DNA of 64,000 bases from NCBI GenBank assembly GCA_021372575.1, contig JAJFUE010000029.1:22646-86645 (forward strand), read 5' to 3'. A program made the translations under genes and the position numbers. This document shows, in pieces, positions 3,494 to 18,470 of this stretch. This stretch comes from a bacterium. GTDB lineage: Bacteria > Sumerlaeota > Sumerlaeia > MVZB01. The notes beneath the pieces were generated by a model. The model saw only the letters and a program-made list of their open reading frames with translations, had not been told where the DNA came from and ran no database searches. How positions within the stretch are numbered: position 1 is the stretch's first letter; each line of letters starts with the position of its first letter.

Positions 3494-3509
3494 TTCTCAA
3501 TCGCTTCTT

Positions 3510-3552
3510 CGTGCTCGTGCTCGTGCTCGTAATCGTAATCGTAATCGAATCC
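3510..3552. repeat. Hexanucleotide microsatellite (CGTGCT)3(CGTAAT)3-CGAATCC in the sufS-sufT spacer (copy 1 of 2)
   Basis: Direct reading. A 39-nt core identical to 7230..7268. Confidence 0.8.
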
Positions 3553-7224: not shown

Positions 7225-7268
7225 TCGCACTCGTGCTCGTGCTCGTAATCGTAATCGTAATCGAATCC
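7225..7268. repeat. Hexanucleotide microsatellite (CGTGCT)2-3(CGTAAT)3-CGAATCC in the sufB-sufC spacer (copy 2 of 2)
   Basis: The same 39-nt core as 3514..3552. Confidence 0.8.
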
Positions 7269-11683: not shown

Positions 11684-12170
11684 CTGAAATCCGAAGAAGA
11701 TATCCACCAGAGCGCCGAAGGCGCGAATCATCCCAGCCTGGGGCGCAGCGAAGCGAAGCCCCAGGACGGAAGATCCCATATCTTAAAATGAGCGCTGAAA
11801 GCGCGGCAGAAATATCGATGGTCTCTAATCCCGTATTTTTTTATGCGCCTTGACCTCTGATGTGGTGCTTTTGATGCGTTTTTCTTTTTGGACCGCGAAG
11901 CGGTTCGATCTCCAAGCCCGGTCTCGTCACGATGATCAAGCCCCCATCCTCGTAACCCCGCGATTCATCGCGGGGTCCGCGCAATCCTTTCTTCGGGAAA
12001 CCGTTTCAACGGTTTCCCTTCGCATTGATCCTGTTTGAGACTTTTGAAAAATGTTCCCGCATTCATATCGCCTGAAAATCCGCAAAAATATTTTATTTTT
12101 TTTCAAATTAAGGGTCGTTAAGTTTCCTAAGGGTTCCTAAGGGAATATACAAATCAAAACATTTTGGTTT

Positions 12171-12854
12171 ATGCTCGCGACCGACCTCGGGAACGCCCGA
12201 GTCACAGAGCTTTCGGCAGAATCAACGAACATGCCAGCCGCCACCGACATCTCCAACCTCGTCTCCGGCGCCGATTCCGCCGAGCGTCTTCTGCTGGCAT
12301 GCCTTAAAACCGCGGAAACGAATGGCACGACGTTCTCCACGCTCGACAAAATGGTCACCACGCTCGCCCGCCTGACCGCCATCCGCAAATCATTGATCAA
12401 TCTTTCCGATAGCCCCGAACCCGAATCGCCTGATTCAACAGATCATTCCCATTCATCCCATCATTCCCATTCCCCCGAAAACCCATCAACTACCGATTCC
12501 ATCTGCGAGCCGTCGATACGTGAAGTCCGGGAAATCCCCGCAATGCCCCTCGACCGCATCGCCGGTGAACTCAACCGCATCAACTGTGATCTCACCGAAC
12601 AACTGCAATTCGCACAAATCGTTCGTAGTCCCGCCTTCAGGCGGAACGATCAATTCATCCAATCCGCGCAATCCGCGTTCGGCCCGAATTCCGATCCGCC
12701 CCCATCCGTTCAATCCACGTCATCCAAGTGTGGCCCGAATTCCGATCCGCCCTCATCCGTTCAATCCGCGTCATCCGCGTGTGGCTTGGATTCCGATCCG
12801 TCCCCATCCGTTCAATCCGCGTCATCCGCGTGTGGCTCGGCAGGCTATGCCTAG
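12171..12854 (+). CDS. Hypothetical Ser/Pro-rich protein with three 51-bp tandem repeats (GPNSDPPPSVQS(T/A)SS(K/A)C)x3; contains one copy of the 26-bp palindromic element
   Basis: ORF in the lower-GC patch. Tandem repeat at 12681..12833; palindromic element at 12621..12646, in frame. Confidence 0.35.
   Translation: MLATDLGNARVTELSAESTNMPAATDISNLVSGADSAERLLLACLKTAETNGTTFSTLDKMVTTLARLTAIRKSLINLSDSPEPESPDSTDHSHSSHHSHSPENPSTTDSICEPSIREVREIPAMPLDRIAGELNRINCDLTEQLQFAQIVRSPAFRRNDQFIQSAQSAFGPNSDPPPSVQSTSSKCGPNSDPPSSVQSASSACGLDSDPSPSVQSASSACGSAGYA
12621..12646. repeat. 26-bp palindromic element GTTCGTAGTYCCGCCTTCAGGCGGAA (copy 1 of 4)
   Basis: Stem CCGCC/GGCGG with loop TTCA. The same sequence occurs at 15873..15898, 15919..15944 (inverted) and 16108..16133. 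Confidence 0.8.
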
Positions 12855-12965
12855 CTGATAGCAACTGCCCAACCACGAACATATATCGAAAATAAACGAG
12901 CTCCAACGGAGCGCGGCGAGGTACAACTGTACCCATCAACCGCCCCATTGGAGCTTGTCGATTAT

Positions 12966-13033
12966 GAAGCCCGTGAACACCGCTCTCCTGAGCGGCATAT
13001 CTGCCGGGCCGAGCGGAAGATCAGCTTTCCCGA
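12966..13033. repeat. About 68-bp structured direct repeat (GAAGCCCGKGAACACCGCTCTCCYGAGCGG…), degenerate copy, upstream of gene 13114..14223
   Basis: About 85% identical to 14223..14288. Confidence 0.6.
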
Positions 13034-13113
13034 GCCTCGAAATCTAAATGGCGAATAACAGACGAGAGGTTGTCCCTGACACTTGACCTTGCGATTACGC
13101 CGCGGTTGAATGT

Positions 13114-14223
13114 TTGACGCCTTTTGAAAGGCATAAATCACACGTGAGAAAGTTCTGGCTAACACTGGCGGCCATTCTGCTGATTTTCGGGATCTGTTTC
13201 TACTTGATGCCATGTTCCGGCAATGGACGGAATCACCGGAACAGCCTGAGAATCGTGGATGTCCTGGCCGAGATCGAAATTCCCAGGGAAATCCCGCACG
13301 AGGACTTGAACAGTATCAGGCTGTCCTGTTCCACCGATTGCGAGGATATTCTGGTCACGTGCCGAAATCCCAATCCCTTTCCAGATCCGCCGAATCACAA
13401 GGTGTATGGAGTTCTTCACCGCGAACGCAGCGGGAAAATCAACTTCATCCAAAAGCCGCAAAGCGACGGGCGGTGGGTGGTGGACGGAAGAGTCGTTTCG
13501 GAAACGGGTGTGCAGGGTTTTCAAGGCGTGCAACCCAGGCCATCTCCGGAAACCGTCCGACGGTTCAAGAAGGTATATGTTGACATCGGCAAGCGATACG
13601 AGATCGAAATCGAGCAACCGGGCGGCAAAGAACTTGAGGATATGAAGGCGATTCTGCAAATAGACGGCACGCGATTTGAAAATATCTACGAGACCCCGGT
13701 TTTCCCCAGCGAGCATCTGATGCAGTATGTCTTTCATGGGGGAGGGCCGGGCAACGAAGGGCTCTTTGCTTTCTACAACAACAAGAAAATCGAAATCACC
13801 GAGCCGGCGCCAAATAATCGTTTGGACGAATTTAATTACGATCCCCTCAAGCACCGCGTCATGTATCAAGGAACCGTCTTTGATCTGGGCACAAAGGCCC
13901 GACGCGCGATTCCCGTTTTCGTCGGGAACGATTACGTGGAATTTTTTATCATCCCCGGCCACGATCTGCTTGTGCGACAACTTCGTTACAATGTGGATGA
14001 CGATCCAGAAGCGGACTACACGGATTCGGCGGGCGATCTCGAGGTGTGCAATCTATACGGCGAGCCGTTTGCGGCGTTGCGATTGCAAAAGAACCGTAAA
14101 ACCGAAAATTGGTTCCCGTTTTCAATCGCCGCATCAAAAAATCTGATCGCATACACGTTGAAGGAAAAAGACCGGCTGGTGATCAGGGTCCATGGGACAG
14201 GAGAGTTGCGCAAGACGAATTGA
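13114..14223 (+). CDS. Hypothetical membrane-anchored protein (single N-terminal TM helix)
   Basis: 369 aa with an N-terminal FWLTLAAILLIFGICFYLM helix. Flanked by about 68-bp direct repeats. The competing minus ORF 13159..13980 is shorter. Confidence 0.4.
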   Translation: MTPFERHKSHVRKFWLTLAAILLIFGICFYLMPCSGNGRNHRNSLRIVDVLAEIEIPREIPHEDLNSIRLSCSTDCEDILVTCRNPNPFPDPPNHKVYGVLHRERSGKINFIQKPQSDGRWVVDGRVVSETGVQGFQGVQPRPSPETVRRFKKVYVDIGKRYEIEIEQPGGKELEDMKAILQIDGTRFENIYETPVFPSEHLMQYVFHGGGPGNEGLFAFYNNKKIEITEPAPNNRLDEFNYDPLKHRVMYQGTVFDLGTKARRAIPVFVGNDYVEFFIIPGHDLLVRQLRYNVDDDPEADYTDSAGDLEVCNLYGEPFAALRLQKNRKTENWFPFSIAASKNLIAYTLKEKDRLVIRVHGTGELRKTN

Positions 14224-14288
14224 AGCCCGGGAACACCGCTCTCCCGAGCGGCTATCTGCCGGGCCGATCGGGAGATCGGCGTTCCCGG
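14223..14288. repeat. About 66-bp structured direct repeat, intact copy: outer stem CCCGGGAAC/GTTCCCGGG enclosing two hairpins (CCGCTC-TCCC-GAGCGG and CCGATC-GGGA-GATCGG)
   Basis: Direct reading. Paired with 12966..13033. Confidence 0.6.
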
Positions 14289-14578
14289 GGCGCGAACTCG
14301 CGCTCGATTACTGCATCAAAAAACGAACCGGAAGAAAGAATCGAGATCCACGGAACACACGGAATTAGAATTTCTCCGTTTTCTCCGTTTCCTCCTGTTC
14401 AATTCTTCTGTTCAGAAATATTCTCTGCCTCTCTGCCAAACTCTGCTTCTCTGCGACAAAAATCTTTTTCGTGTTTTTTCGTGCTCTTCTTTCGTGTGTT
14501 TCGTGTTTGCATTTTTGGGTTGCGGCTCCGCTGCGCCAAGTATTCAGTGTATTCCGTGGTTCAGAGCGACCTGCTGAC

Positions 14579-15787
14579 CTACTCTTTTCCAAGCACGGTC
14601 TTGATGAACTGGTCGCCTTCGAGGAGGCCGTAGCCGCCCTTGGCGCAGGCGGCTTCGTCGTAGCGCTCGACGGAGTCCGCCTCGATGCCGGGGCTCATGA
14701 TCGCGAACGGCACGTCGCCATGGATGTGCACGCGGCTCTCGACGGGCGTCGGGTGATCCGGCAGGAGCGCCACGACGGCGCGCTCGTGTTTCTTTTCCAG
14801 CTCGCCCAGAATGCGCCCGATCAGCCGTCGATCCAAATCTTCGATCGATTTGATCTTGCGCTCCAAGTTGCCTTCGTGGCTCGCCTCGTCGGGGGCCTCG
14901 ACGTGCAGATAGACAAAATCGTGGTCCTTGAGCGCGTTGAGGCACGCGTCGGCCTTGCCCTCGAAGTTGGTGTTCCACAGGCCGGTCGCGCCTTCGACCT
15001 TGATCACGTCCAGCCCGGCATAGACGCCGATGCCGCGGATGAGATCGACGGCCGAGATGACCGCGCCGGTGACGCCGAAACGGTCCTTGTAAGTCCACAT
15101 CGTCGGCCGGCGGCCCGGCGACCACAGCCAGATGGAATTGGCGGGGTCCTTGCCCTCGGCGCGGCGGCGCTCGTTGAGCGGGTGGTGTTCGAACAGCTCC
15201 CACGAGCGGCGCGTGATGCGGTTGAGCAGCTCGGCCGTGGCCTTCGCCTGTGAGTTCTTCGGCTTGATCATGAGGTCCTCGACGAGTTCGCCGGGGTGGT
15301 CGTGCGGCGGCATGCAGATGAGGTCCGGGCTCAGGCCGTGGCCGACGAACAGGTGCCGGTAATCGACGCCGGTGTAGAAGCTGAGGCCGTGACCGCCGAC
15401 CTCGGCGCGCAGCACGCCGAGCAACTCGTCCGACTCGGCCGAAGTGATGTGGCCCGCCGAGTGGTTCTTGATGCGCTTGTTCTCGATGCACAGGACGTTG
15501 CAGCGCATCGCCATGTCGTCGTCGCCGATCTCGACGCCCATCGACGCGGCCTCGAGCGCGCCGCGCCCGTAGCCGCACGTGCGCGCGTCGAAACCCATCA
15601 CGCCGAGGTTCGCGACCTCGCTGCCGGGAGGAAGATCGGCGGGCACCGTGCGAAACAGTCCGCAGCGCCCCTCGCGCGCGATGCGGTCCATGTTGGGCTT
15701 GTTCGCCACCTGAAGCGGCGTCTTCCCATTGAGCTTCTTGACCGGAACGTCCGCCATCCCGTCGCCGAGGATCACGATGTACTTCAT
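14579..15787 (-). CDS. apgM: 2,3-bisphosphoglycerate-independent phosphoglycerate mutase, archaeal-type (ApgM family)
   Basis: Start MKYIVILGDGMAD (alternative upstream start at 15820). Metal-binding DGMAD, HVEAPDEASHEG and LLPDHPTP motifs typical of cofactor-independent PGM / alkaline phosphatase-superfamily ApgM. Confidence 0.8.
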   Translation of the reverse strand: MKYIVILGDGMADVPVKKLNGKTPLQVANKPNMDRIAREGRCGLFRTVPADLPPGSEVANLGVMGFDARTCGYGRGALEAASMGVEIGDDDMAMRCNVLCIENKRIKNHSAGHITSAESDELLGVLRAEVGGHGLSFYTGVDYRHLFVGHGLSPDLICMPPHDHPGELVEDLMIKPKNSQAKATAELLNRITRRSWELFEHHPLNERRRAEGKDPANSIWLWSPGRRPTMWTYKDRFGVTGAVISAVDLIRGIGVYAGLDVIKVEGATGLWNTNFEGKADACLNALKDHDFVYLHVEAPDEASHEGNLERKIKSIEDLDRRLIGRILGELEKKHERAVVALLPDHPTPVESRVHIHGDVPFAIMSPGIEADSVERYDEAACAKGGYGLLEGDQFIKTVLGKE

Positions 15788-15872
15788 GACGATGCCTTTC
15801 CGAATGGACTGCCTGACCAAGCCATTTTTTCAGGAAACGAGGGAATACGGAATCGAAAAAAGTAACGTAAGG

Positions 15873-15898
15873 TTCGTAGTTCCGCCTTCAGGCGGAAT
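15873..15898. repeat. 26-bp palindromic element (copy 2)
   Basis: GTTCGTAGTTCCGCCTTCAGGCGGAA. Confidence 0.8.
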
Positions 15899-15918
15899 AT
15901 GCACGCCGCTTGGTTATG

Positions 15919-15944
15919 TTCCGCCTGAAGGCGGCACTACCAAC
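15919..15944. repeat. 26-bp palindromic element (copy 3, inverted relative to copy 2); it abuts the stop codon of the sigma54 activator
   Basis: TTCCGCCTGAAGGCGGCACTACCAAC, the reverse complement of the consensus. Copies 2 and 3 form a long inverted pair. Confidence 0.8.
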
Positions 15945-15945
15945 T

Positions 15946-16935
15946 CTATGTTTTAATCTTGTCCTGGTATTTCCTGTAATAACCGCGGAACTGGTGGTAG
16001 GTCAGGCCGAGGCACTCGGCAGCCTGACGCTGGTTGTAGTGGGTGGCCTCGAGCGCCTCGCGCAGCCGCCGCAGCTCGAGCTCGGCAATCTCGTCGGTAA
16101 GGGTAATGTTCGTAGTCCCGCCTTCAGGCGGAACAACAGGGTTGCTCGCGTGATTCGCCCACTCCGACTCGAACGGGTTGAAGATGATGTCGTCGATCGG
16201 CTCGCCGCCGCAGCGATAGACCATGCGCTCGATGACGTTCTTGAGCTCGCGGACGTTGCCCGGCCATTCGTAATCGAGCAGCATCGCCCTCGCGCGCCCG
16301 GTGAGCTCGGGGGCCTTCTCATAGCCCATCTCGGACGCCATGCGGCGCGCGAAGTGCTCGGCGAGGATCGGGATGTCGTCCTTGCGCGCGCGCAGCGGAG
16401 GCAGCGTGATCACCTCGAAGCTGAGGCGGTCCAGCAGGTCCTGGCGGAACTGGCCGTCGCGCGCCATCGCGAGGAGGTCGGCGTGCGTGGCCGCGATCAG
16501 GCGCACGTTGGCGATGATGGGCGTCGAACTGCCGACGCGCTCCATCTGGCCGTACTCGACGACGCGCAGAATTTTCTCCTGGACCGTGGGCGGGATGTTG
16601 GCGACCTCGTCGAGGAACAGGGAGCCGCCATCGGCGATCTCGAAGCGCCCCTTGCGCTGGCGCAGCGCCCCGGTGAACGCGCCGGCCTCGTGGCCGAACA
16701 GCTCGCTCTCGATCAGCGTCGGGCTGAGCGCGGCGCAGTTGAGCGTGACGTAGGGCTGGCTCCAGCGCGTCGAGAGCATGTGCAGGCGCGCGGCGGCGAG
16801 CTCCTTGCCGGTGCCGCGCTCGCCGATAAAAATCACCGGCCGGCTGGTGCGCGCGGCCATCGAAATGCGCTCCTGCAGCTCGAGGAACGCCTCGGACTGG
16901 CCAAGGGCCTGGTTGTCAAGAACCCCGTCGCTCAT
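15946..16935 (-). CDS. Sigma-54-dependent transcriptional activator, AAA+ and HTH domains only (PspF-like, no sensor domain), with an in-frame palindromic-element insertion in the linker
   Basis: 329 aa. Walker A GERGTGKE, GAFTGA loop (…ESELFGHEAGAFTGA…), Walker B, C-terminal HTH (…QRQAAECLGLTYHQFRGYY…). The peptide VVPPEGGTTN is encoded by the 26-bp element at 16108..16133. Confidence 0.8.
   Translation of the reverse strand: MSDGVLDNQALGQSEAFLELQERISMAARTSRPVIFIGERGTGKELAAARLHMLSTRWSQPYVTLNCAALSPTLIESELFGHEAGAFTGALRQRKGRFEIADGGSLFLDEVANIPPTVQEKILRVVEYGQMERVGSSTPIIANVRLIAATHADLLAMARDGQFRQDLLDRLSFEVITLPPLRARKDDIPILAEHFARRMASEMGYEKAPELTGRARAMLLDYEWPGNVRELKNVIERMVYRCGGEPIDDIIFNPFESEWANHASNPVVPPEGGTTNITLTDEIAELELRRLREALEATHYNQRQAAECLGLTYHQFRGYYRKYQDKIKT
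16108..16133. repeat. 26-bp palindromic element (copy 4), in frame inside the sigma54 activator CDS
   Basis: GTTCGTAGTCCCGCCTTCAGGCGGAAC. Confidence 0.8.
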
Positions 16936-17108: not shown

Positions 17109-17184
17109 TGGGGAGTGGTGTAGTTGGTAACACGCCTGACTCTGGATCAGGAGTTCGTAGGTTCGAGTCCTACCTCCCCAGCCA
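17109..17184 (+). tRNA. tRNA-Gln (anticodon CTG), CCA encoded
   Basis: Cloverleaf read by hand. Acceptor TGGGGAG/CTCCCCA, anticodon stem CCTGA/TCAGG with loop CTCTGGA, T-arm GTAGG-TTCGAGT-CCTAC, discriminator G, CCA. Confidence 0.8.
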
Positions 17185-17214
17185 CTTCAAACCATCGATT
17201 CCCTACCAACAGGT

Positions 17215-17290
17215 GGCGCTATCGTCTAGGGGTCTAGGACGCTGGCCTCTCACGCCGGAAACAGGGGTTCGAATCCCCTTGGCGCTACCA
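17215..17290 (+). tRNA. tRNA-Glu (anticodon CTC), CCA encoded; the integration target of the island
   Basis: Aligns with E. coli tRNA-Glu along its whole length (TCGTCTAG…AGGAC…CTCAC…AACAGGGGTTCGAATCCCCT). Anticodon stem CTGGC/GCCGG, loop CTCTCAC, T-loop TTCGAAT, discriminator A, CCA. The acceptor stem has G1:U72 and U6:G67 wobble pairs. Confidence 0.75.
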
Positions 17291-17303
17291 AACTGAATTC
17301 GCA

Positions 17304-17337
17304 AGACTTAGCTGATGAAGCTAGGTCTTTTTTATTG
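17304..17337 (+). terminator. Rho-independent terminator after the tRNA-Glu gene
   Basis: 9-bp stem AGACTTAGC / GCTAGGTCT (one G:U), 7-nt loop, followed by TTTTTTATT. Confidence 0.5.
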
Positions 17338-17375
17338 TAGTAAGACCCCACGTTACACGGGTCATGTTACACGGG

Positions 17376-18470
17376 TCACTCCGATACACCATCTTTCTTG
17401 GGCTCAGGAAGCGCGATCTCCAGGATCGGAGCGGTCGGATGACAGTAACGCTCCGTAGTGCTGATCCGGTTGTGTCCAAGCGCCGCCTTGAGCGCGAACG
17501 CATTGTGCCCAACCATCTCAGCCATCAATGTCGCGTAGGTGTGGCGAAACGAATGCCCAGTAAGCTTTTGCCCGAGTGCATCATACTTGGGGATACCCGC
17601 TTTCTTTAGAACATCATCGAACTGGCGGCAGGCAGCGAAAAGACGCTTGAATACAAACGCTGTCTTTGAACGCTTCATTTGCGATTTAAGAGGCTCGATG
17701 ACCCATTCGGGCAACGGAATCACGCGCACCTTCGGATTCGCCTTAGCTGCCCCTTGACGCTGTTTGGCTGTTCTTAGCCTGATTAGGCTGTGCTCGAAGT
17801 CCACCTCGGTCTTGAGCAGCGGTTTGTGGGTGCTCATCGGAGAAGGCACGAGTTCTGCCTGACGCGCACCGGTGGCAAGCATGAGCAAGTAAAGCGGTTT
17901 GAGTCGAGCAGGACAAGCCTCGAAAAATTTGGCGAGTTCTTCATTGGTTAAAGCACGTTGTGCGGTTACCTTGCCTGGTTTAGGAGTGGGCTTCTGCACG
18001 TGGAATCCATTTACGCGCAGCATCCGGATCATATAGATCAGTTCCCGGTTGACGGTGCCGAGAGATCTCGTCTTTAGGCGATAACGTTGGAATTTCTCCA
18101 GTAGCTCGGTTGTGATCCTTTCCAGTTTGATGTCGCCGGCGTAGTTCAGGAAGTTCTTTAGCGAGAACTCAACCCGCTCACTCTGAAGGGGCGAGACGTC
18201 TATCTTGAGCCGCTGCACCTCTGCCTTGATCGCGTTGGAGAGAGTCAACGGGTCCCTTGGGTCAATCCGATAGCTCTCCGCCATCTCTTTGAGGCGCGGG
18301 ATCTCTTTAAGCGCTCGTTTCTTGTCCGTCTGCCCTGTTGAACGGCTCCAAGTCTTGCCATTCACCTCAGTCTGATAAATCCAAACGTTTCGACCTTTCA
18401 TACGACGTAAAACCATCGACAAAGCCTCTGTTGGGCTGCGCGCCCAGGAATGTATCTGCATGCGATTCAC
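17376..18470 (-). CDS. int: Tyrosine-type site-specific integrase (phage integrase family)
   Basis: 364 aa. C-terminal catalytic motifs …GHSFRHTYAT… and …LGHNRISTTERYCH… (H-x-x-R and the catalytic Y). N-terminal SAM-like/AP2-like DNA-binding region. Confidence 0.85.
   Translation of the reverse strand: MNRMQIHSWARSPTEALSMVLRRMKGRNVWIYQTEVNGKTWSRSTGQTDKKRALKEIPRLKEMAESYRIDPRDPLTLSNAIKAEVQRLKIDVSPLQSERVEFSLKNFLNYAGDIKLERITTELLEKFQRYRLKTRSLGTVNRELIYMIRMLRVNGFHVQKPTPKPGKVTAQRALTNEELAKFFEACPARLKPLYLLMLATGARQAELVPSPMSTHKPLLKTEVDFEHSLIRLRTAKQRQGAAKANPKVRVIPLPEWVIEPLKSQMKRSKTAFVFKRLFAACRQFDDVLKKAGIPKYDALGQKLTGHSFRHTYATLMAEMVGHNAFALKAALGHNRISTTERYCHPTAPILEIALPEPKKDGVSE

Follow-up and report, generated by a model that had tools for sequence, protein, structure and literature searches.

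A GTAG-tagged palindromic repeat within and beside a pspF-type gene of a Sumerlaeota bacterium very probably belongs to the RAYT-associated class of repetitive extragenic palindromes

Results

A short palindromic element recurs within and beside a regulatory gene on contig JAJFUE010000029.1 (assembly GCA_021372575.1) of a bacterium of the Sumerlaeota. We analyzed a 64-kb stretch of this contig, hereafter called the window. The regulatory gene (15946–16935, minus strand) encodes a pspF-type sigma54 activator of 329 amino acids (aa) that is identical to NCBI MCE5228541.1, titled 'phage shock protein operon transcriptional activator [bacterium]'. Downstream of pspF and co-directional with it lies apgM (14579–15787, minus strand), which encodes a cofactor-independent phosphoglycerate mutase; its probable start is the ATG at 15787, giving 402 aa as in orthologs. 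A conserved hypothetical gene (12231–12854, plus strand; NCBI MCE5228538.1), with a Met start at 12231, is the third gene concerned. Copies of the element lie within the hypothetical gene (copy 1), in the pspF–apgM spacer (copies 2 and 3), and within pspF (copy 4). We consider it very likely that this 26–27 bp unit is a GTAG-tagged repetitive extragenic palindromic (REP) sequence of the class associated with REP-associated tyrosine transposases (RAYTs).

Searching with the pattern GTTCGTAGTYCCGCCTTCAGGCGGAA returned exactly four matches in the window and none in 100 dinucleotide-preserving shuffles of it. Copy 1 (12621–12646, plus strand), copy 2 (15872–15897, plus strand), and copy 4 (16108–16133, plus strand) matched without mismatches, while copy 3 (15919–15944, minus strand) carried two mismatches, GTTGGTAGTGCC.... 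The 27-bp units of copies 1 and 4, which extend to 12647 and 16134, are identical and read GTTCGTAGTCCCGCCTTCAGGCGGAAC. Neither further copies, with up to 7 mismatches allowed, nor other repeat families of REP-like type were found in the window, and no Rfam family overlapped its REP elements. The original prediction, made from the sequence of the window, had claimed four copies; its count and three of the starts were right, and copy 2 begins at 15872 instead of 15873.

The unit consists of a 5' GTTC, an unpaired GTAG(T) head, a G+C stem of 5–7 bp, a 4-nt TTCA loop, and a 3' GAAC able to pair with the 5' GTTC. All four window copies have both the GTAG head and the hairpin. In copy 2, GTAG occupies 15876–15879 and the loop TTCA is closed by a 7-bp stem, TTCCGCC/GGCGGAA. 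The predicted folding energy of single copies was −12 to −16 kcal/mol. Read from the sequence, four of the six reading frames are open through the unit, and its length of 27 bp corresponds to nine codons.

The family extends far beyond this genome. A 20-mer core, GTAGTNCCGCCTTCAGGCGG, was searched in one genome per GTDB species and was found, as an exact match, in at least 118 stretches. Among the matches listed, the genomes were labelled as about 15 phylum-level groups, including Planctomycetota, Verrucomicrobiota, Acidobacteriota, Chloroflexota, Desulfobacterota, Lentisphaerota, Kiritimatiellota, Myxococcota, Sumerlaeota, Hydrogenedentota, KSB1, Cloacimonadota, and others. GTTY directly 5' of GTAG, which lies outside the search pattern, was kept in most of 157 copies from other genomes. 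GTAG-outward inverted pairs were common there, with genome-specific spacers. The original recognition of a dispersed palindromic family in the window was supported.

Other arrangements of the unit were also observed. Head-to-tail tandem arrays occurred at L110:7595–7715, with a 30-bp period and an open frame reading repeated NRVRSTAFRR, and at L014:1102–1154, with a 33-bp period. Contigs of viral classification (22 in number; L204–L233, IMG/VR) also carried the exact 20-mer, in 30 stretches and in some cases as dimers. These contigs may be prophage or host-flank DNA. No case could be made for a phage vector of the family, since none of the 30 stretches held a RAYT-like open reading frame (ORF).

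A link between the element and RAYT genes was found in other genomes. A strict RAYT motif search over the 118 genome loci returned one gene, at locus L093 of a Verrucomicrobiota metagenome-assembled genome (MAG). Its 218-aa ORF (1033–1689) carries the HUH motif as HYH and the Y motif as NYIHNNP, and it matched the NCBIfam equivalog NF047646, REP-associated tyrosine transposase, with 81 bits (cutoff 80). Dimers of this family bracket the gene, one upstream and two downstream. The 3' end of this RAYT gene itself runs into a REP copy (…HVVPASGGT).

To extend this observation, 80 metagenome loci (434 kb) were chosen solely by protein homology to the L093 RAYT clade, and a core hit was defined as ≤3 mismatches in 20, for which the chance expectation is 0.03 hits over all 434 kb. 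The core was present in 45 of the 80 loci, and 32 of the 80 carried copies on both sides of the RAYT gene. Nearly all hits (148 of 168) lay within 400 bp of the RAYT gene. Hit density was 1.40 per kb near RAYT versus 0.061 per kb elsewhere, a 23-fold enrichment. All 20 aligned RAYTs matched NF047646, and the sole PDB hit of a profile of these 20 sequences was 4ER8 (E. coli TnpA-REP, E = 1.4e-7). RAYTs sharing the 20-mer core were only about 50–57% identical. The family is demonstrably RAYT-associated in other genomes, and its core marks genomes that are likely to carry one particular RAYT clade.

Conservation of the stem was assessed by covariation among copies in the RAYT-selected loci. A head-only anchor, GTTYGTAGY, was too noisy (51 hits versus about 26 by chance), and copies were instead picked by the head GTAG[TC] plus the loop TT[CT]A, which leaves the stem free. 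This yielded 68 copies, about 13 of them expected by chance. Stem cells were paired in 87% of cases versus 62% in shuffles. The stem covariation score was 0.483 versus 0.109 in shuffles, a value reached by 0 of 500 shuffles, and slid-register controls scored ≤0.19. Double-sided stem changes numbered 43, for example CCGCC/GGCGG, CCCAC/GTGGG, and CCGGC/GCCGG. This pattern of compensated change indicates that the family hairpin is under selection.

Copies 2 and 3 form a GTAG-outward inverted dimer (15872–15944, minus strand, 73 bp) resembling a REP doublet forming a hairpin (REPIN) and the 'HH' type of Di Nocera 2013. Its arms are separated by a 21-nt spacer (15898–15918), and the dimer takes up 73 bp of the 158-nt pspF–apgM spacer. 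Copy 3 ends at 15944, leaving a 1-nt gap to the pspF stop TAG at 15946–15948, so that the inverted pair lies between the activator and apgM where the original prediction had placed it. The strong hairpin expected of the pair was likewise supported, since as RNA a 101-nt segment folded into a single long hairpin of −47.5 kcal/mol with z = −8.5. The extended form of this hairpin takes in the stop codon of pspF, and 2 nt separate it from a U6 run on the sense strand of that gene (15856–15861, minus strand), which begins 10 nt past the dimer. No comparable U-run was found on the opposite strand of the dimer. The suggested bidirectional action of the hairpin as a terminator found no support, as pspF and apgM are co-directional and the U-run is on the sense strand only. 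A role as a sense-strand terminator or attenuator, or as a 3' mRNA stabilizer, is plausible. REPs of E. coli are known to stabilize upstream mRNA. Liang, Rudd and Deutscher reportedly found in 2015 that expression can be lowered, through stalled ribosomes, when a REP lies no more than about 15 nt from a stop codon.

The history of the dimer was read from orthologous pspF–apgM spacers in related genomes, among them L119 from assembly GCA_032942435.1 and L121 from assembly GCA_039683515.1. The dimer was absent from those of L119, L123, and L121, and its insertion in the window lineage is therefore recent. In L122, the contig covers about 70 nt beyond the pspF stop, and no copy lies within them. 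Homology to L119 and L123 is regained from a T-run onward, which reads CTCTTTTTC in these relatives and ACTTTTTTC in the window. This U-run is kept in orthologs that have no dimer and is thus older than the dimer. In the relatives, the approximately 30 nt before the T-run form only a weak hairpin (z = −1.4); in the window, the dimer stands there. The last pspF codon and the stop also differ, KV-TGA in the relatives and KT-TAG in the window. Between the T-run and the apgM start, a conserved motif CGTTTCCTGAAA (CGTTCCCTGGAAA in L121) at about 15822–15833 (minus strand) was observed in the window, L119, L123, and L121; it could serve apgM as a promoter or regulatory site.

Copy 4 lies inside pspF. 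The protein contains Sigma54_activat (11–173), AAA_lid_14 (182–248), and HTH_8 (283–316) domains and no receiver domain, and among its named relatives the nearest come from Candidatus Sumerlaeia/BRC1. Read on the minus strand, copy 4 encodes V267–N276, VVPPEGGTTN, between AAA_lid_14 and HTH_8. The domain matches agree with the claim that it is read in frame in the linker between the AAA+ domain and the helix-turn-helix (HTH). An AlphaFold model of PspF built from 17 sequences had a poor AAA+ core, with a mean predicted local distance difference test (pLDDT) score of 54.8, and residues ~180–329 alone were used. In this part, confident helices end at 263 and restart at 279, and residues 264–274 have pLDDT <50. 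PspF linkers are hypervariable in sequence and in length.

The same linker site carries element-derived DNA in all four of the closest PspF orthologs, which are 79–90% identical by BLASTP (82–90% in alignment). In each case the DNA stands directly before a conserved (I/M/L)xL(T/V)(D/E)E. The window holds a perfect single copy, L119 a decayed single copy that has lost GTAG (GACCCGCCGGAAGGCGGGCCGTCGAAC), L123 a decayed inverted dimer, and L121 two decayed tandem copies. L122 carries a perfect dimer, read as KFVVPPSGGTMNGQTAIPPEGGTTN and followed by a 12-bp tail, GGGACGACGAAC. At L122:~1200–1290, this tail stands directly behind the in-frame dimer as a near-duplicate of the end of the element (GGGACTACGAAC, then GGGACGACGAAC); it was either left over from an older copy or duplicated by slippage. 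GTAG is mutated in the orthologous copies that have decayed.

In PspF proteins ≤74% identical the element was absent, and their linkers were unrelated and often longer. Because the element is found in all four close orthologs and not in distant PspF, it entered the linker in the ancestor of a small clade, and the linker copy predates the split of orthologs that are 79–90% identical in protein. The insertion had been expected to be lineage-specific. This holds in that distant PspF proteins are free of it, and it does not hold for this genome alone, as the four close orthologs carry copies. No ortholog had the same peptide without the palindrome; the orthologs keep a recognizable, partly palindromic DNA copy.

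Conservation of the linker copies did not follow that of the surrounding gene. Outside the linker, pspF of the window and of L122 showed 81.8% nucleotide identity, with 65% at third codon positions, whereas their linker element copies were identical at 26 of 27 positions. At this site the window matches the family consensus at 27/27 positions and L122 at 26/27. Their sister lineages (L119 and L123 for the window, L121 for L122) hold copies with 5–6 mismatches and destroyed GTAG heads. Comparison of these five sequences suggests re-insertion or conversion at the linker site in lineages in which the family is active.

Copy 1 is read in frame as VRSPAFRRN in MCE5228538.1. Among 1.84 billion representatives, 12 homologs of this protein were found in addition to the protein itself, so that the ORF in which the original prediction had seen an in-frame copy is a real gene. 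The closest homolog is 61% identical over the conserved N-terminal part. The window segment of about 16 aa that holds copy 1, FAQIVRSPAFRRNDQF, corresponds to a gap in this homolog and in five of the seven others aligned, and it sits in a Pro/Ser-rich variable tail. On this alignment, copy 1 is an in-frame insertion in a genuine gene. A 51-bp tandem repeat (3.5 units, 87% matches, 12660–12836) begins 14 bp past copy 1 and encodes a 17-aa GPNSDPPPSVQSTSSKC-like repeat in the tail of the hypothetical protein.

Coding insertions are not confined to the window. About 10% of family copies (18 of 171) fall within reading frames that stay open for ≥100 codons to either side. The hosts of two such intragenic copies were confirmed to be real genes, a resistance-nodulation-division (RND) transporter, in which an uninterrupted ACR_tran match spans the REP insertions, and a MurC-MurB fusion. 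The RND (AcrB-type) transporter gene, at L093:1857–5210, contains two in-frame REP dimers (…ARSPGFSRKE…AFRLKAGL…, twice). In-frame insertions would be survivable as neutral decorations because four of six frames are open and the unit is 27 bp long. Such intragenic REPs are tolerated in flexible linkers or loops (PMC6006769), and intragenic in-frame GTAG REPs are documented and most abundant in Opitutus terrae (PMC3733652).

Discussion

The anatomy, genomic distribution, and RAYT linkage of the unit point to a REP. As a class, REPs are imperfect palindromes of 20–40 bp with GT[AG]G at the base of the hairpin, are often arranged as inverted dimers, and lie mostly outside genes and downstream of them. 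Di Nocera, De Gregorio and Rocco 2013 (PMC3733652) define GTAG REPs by a GTAG next to a short G+C hairpin, occurring as singles and inverted dimers. Like the window unit, these are stem-loops with unpaired GTAG at one end, found as singles and as GTAG-outward 'HH' dimers, and they lie between co-directional genes near the 3' end of the upstream ORF. Their in-frame copies in real genes encode 7–30 residues, which recalls copies 1 and 4, and their families occur in the Planctomycetes-Verrucomicrobia-Chlamydiae (PVC) superphylum and Chloroflexi, as does the window family. The REP peptides of O. terrae and R. baltica (e.g., VGPALAAG, GTGVPPV; PMC3733652) differ from those of the window unit. Neither the 14-mer core nor PPEGG is present in the supplementary text of PMC3733652, whose Figure 1 carries the family consensus sequences in a form that was not readable, and none of the papers in the literature searched contained the core. 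The stem/loop consensus CCGCC-TTCA-GGCGG may thus represent an undescribed family or one shown only in that figure. Elements of this kind, intragenic copies included, are already known, and no new kind of system is described here.

Similar relationships hold for the transposase. REPIN-RAYT systems (Bertels and Rainey 2011, PMC3116915; Bertels et al. 2017, PMC5581495) share with the present family inverted doublets that form a long hairpin, RAYT genes flanked by repeats, and intact copies in some lineages only. Near-consensus copies numbered four in the 64-kb window, and only decayed ones were found in the L119 (15.7-kb) and L121 (21-kb) loci. This intact-versus-decayed pattern would agree with repeat populations being dependent on an active RAYT. 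The difference is that REPIN-RAYT systems have been studied mainly in Pseudomonas and Enterobacteria, with species-specific REPs, whereas here one core is found in MAGs of many phyla. In the E. coli REP system of bacterial interspersed mosaic elements (BIMEs) with TnpA-REP (4ER8; PMC3479197, PMC8266576), a GTAG head plus hairpin likewise forms the recognition unit; the relation is distant, and the RAYTs here have HUH as HYH and a conserved N-terminal RPWHSPP. The 'subclass 2.8' of Quentin et al. 2018 (PMC6006769) resembles them in its HYH, a length of about 200 aa, and a Pro-rich N-terminus. Its Y-motif is YIHYNP versus NY[VI]H[HN]NP here, which makes this a resemblance only. RAYT genes of 'subclass 2.8' are flanked by GT[AG]G REPs and have relatives 'from other unrelated phyla' (PMC6006769).

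Taken as a REP, the unit would behave as follows. In single-stranded form it would fold into a hairpin, and the hairpin with its GTAG head would be recognized and cut by a RAYT (HUH/Y1), as for TnpA-REP. The unit would be non-autonomous, with the RAYT encoded once elsewhere in the genome, and RAYT action would spread both single units and GTAG-outward inverted dimers (REPINs). Two single units would have landed in frame in tolerant segments, one in the PspF linker between AAA+ and HTH and the other in the variable tail of the hypothetical protein. One dimer would have inserted recently right after the pspF stop, upstream of an existing U-run. Once transcribed with pspF, this dimer would fold into a very stable hairpin at the 3' end that takes in the stop codon. 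The likely consequence is that transcription is terminated or attenuated ahead of apgM, that the 3' end of the pspF mRNA is protected, or both.

Several observations weigh against this interpretation. Only four copies were found in 64 kb, all inside 3.5 kb (12.6–16.1 kb); REPs typically reach tens to hundreds of copies dispersed through a genome. Two of the four lie inside genes, which is unusual for a repeat called 'extragenic'. The strict RAYT motif search found no RAYT in six-frame translations of the window. A RAYT gene usually occurs once per genome (PMC5581495), and RAYTs are therefore expected to be seen rarely near copies. Among the RAYT-selected loci, 35 of 80 had no copy at ≤3 mismatches; such loci may lie on short contigs or have REPs of variant sequence. 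Most genomes with the 20-mer are MAGs, and mis-binned contigs could distort some phylum labels. At the dimer, a consensus terminator scan found no terminator; it allows loops of 3–8 nt, and the dimer spacer is 21 nt. The proposed RNA role of the dimer is drawn entirely from predicted folding.

Other origins of the repeats were weighed against the same evidence. One is that the unit is a miniature inverted-repeat transposable element (MITE) or an end fragment of another transposon, for example of the insertion sequences (IS) IS200/IS605 with TnpB subterminal hairpins, and was mobilized in that way. The inverted dimers do look like small MITEs, IS200/IS605 ends carry hairpins, RAYTs are kin to IS200 TnpA (PMC6006769), and no transposase of any kind adjoins the window copies. 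However, the unit bears the REP-specific GTAG head, the flanked genes are RAYTs of about 200 aa (NF047646, 4ER8) and not IS200 TnpA-TnpB pairs, and the mixture of singles, dimers, tandem arrays, and genome-specific spacers is that of REP/BIME sequences and not of a fixed-length MITE, which makes this origin very improbable. The chance that the repeats reflect coincidence or an assembly artifact is negligible. The small copy number alone speaks for it, and against it stand the absence of matches in 100 shuffles, identical units in hundreds of independent assemblies, and orthologous copies in independently assembled relatives.

Somewhat different is the possibility that the element is immobile and is kept for a host function, as a terminator or stabilizer hairpin, a protein-binding site, or a PPEGGTTN linker peptide motif. 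The element is found at the same linker site in five orthologs, where its GAAGGCGGG core is invariant, and the dimer is placed where a terminator is expected, upstream of a U-run. REPs of E. coli also bind gyrase and integration host factor (IHF) and stabilize mRNA (summarized in PMC3733652). The contexts in the window are nevertheless unrelated, with coding copies in two frames, copies on both strands, and non-coding copies, and elsewhere the element spans many phyla and clusters around RAYT genes. The encoded peptide varies by frame (VRSPAFRRN, VVPPEGGTTN, FVVPPSGGT), so it is the DNA or hairpin that is conserved and not the peptide. PspF proteins ≤74% identical do without the element, and its presence or absence between close orthologous loci indicates insertion. 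Retention for host function is therefore improbable as the explanation of the family, and the REP explanation leaves room for host exaptation of individual copies.

CRISPR-like (clustered regularly interspaced short palindromic) repeats, a riboswitch or small RNA, and a conserved peptide motif were rejected as readings of the repeats. The original prediction had likened the element to the Rickettsia palindromic elements (RPEs), and this comparison stands as an analogy only. Both are palindromic, insert in frame in coding genes, and are tolerated in surface segments or loops; the family itself belongs with GTAG REPs and REPINs. To our knowledge, RPEs are restricted to Rickettsia. RPE-1 is about 100–150 bp long. 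Identity with RPEs was rejected, as the unit is 27 bp, GTAG-tagged, and its host is not Rickettsia. RPE-4 and RPE-6 are CGTC-tagged in contrast to the GTAG-tagged window unit, and CGTC repeats, including RPE-4 and RPE-6, have no associated transposase gene (PMC3733652).

With the REP explanation preferred, one orthologous coding site offers a natural series of empty, single, dimer, tandem, and decayed states. This series and the fresh dimer upstream of an existing U-run could be used to follow REP spread, decay, and tolerance in proteins and transcripts. For annotation, it is of value that VVPPEGGTTN, FVVPPSGGT, VRSPAFRRN, and FRLKAGL are translated REP units and not protein motifs. Such REP peptides occur in proteins of Planctomycetota, Verrucomicrobiota, Acidobacteriota, Sumerlaeota, and other groups. 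A more speculative view, which we hold to be rather unlikely, is that the linker is a long-lived and repeatedly refreshed 'landing pad' for REPs, and that one core and one RAYT clade have been co-conserved across many phyla. If this were true, REPs would home to, or be gene-converted at, existing REP remnants even within coding sequence, and such refreshing or the co-conservation of core and RAYT would bear on the unresolved mechanism of REP dissemination.

Additional Observations

The copy-1 gene lies in a segment of about 2.9 kb (~11700–14570) with a G+C content of 49–57% versus 60–67% in its neighbors. This segment also holds a 369-aa ORF without a Pfam hit. It is absent from L119 and L121, where apgM adjoins the 548-aa gene, and it is probably acquired DNA. 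At the edge of this lineage-specific segment, just downstream of the 548-aa gene, an Acido-Lenti-1 RNA (RF01687) match was found at 11711–11765 (minus strand) with 39.7 bits (gathering score 37, E = 1.6e-6).

Immediately upstream of pspF (17109–18470 and beyond) lie tRNA-Gln, tRNA-Glu, and then a tyrosine integrase. In L121, a Sumerlaeia relative, divergent pspA-pspB-pspC adjoin pspF, and a tblastn search with these L121 proteins gave no match in the 64 kb of the window. Integrases and ArdA stand beside pspF in L119 too. It appears that pspF has been parted by an integrative element from the operon it usually controls, or that this operon has been lost. Near the suf genes, two near-identical hexamer microsatellites, (TCGTGC)n(TCGTAA)n, were observed at 3509–3547 and 7231–7263, 3.7 kb apart.

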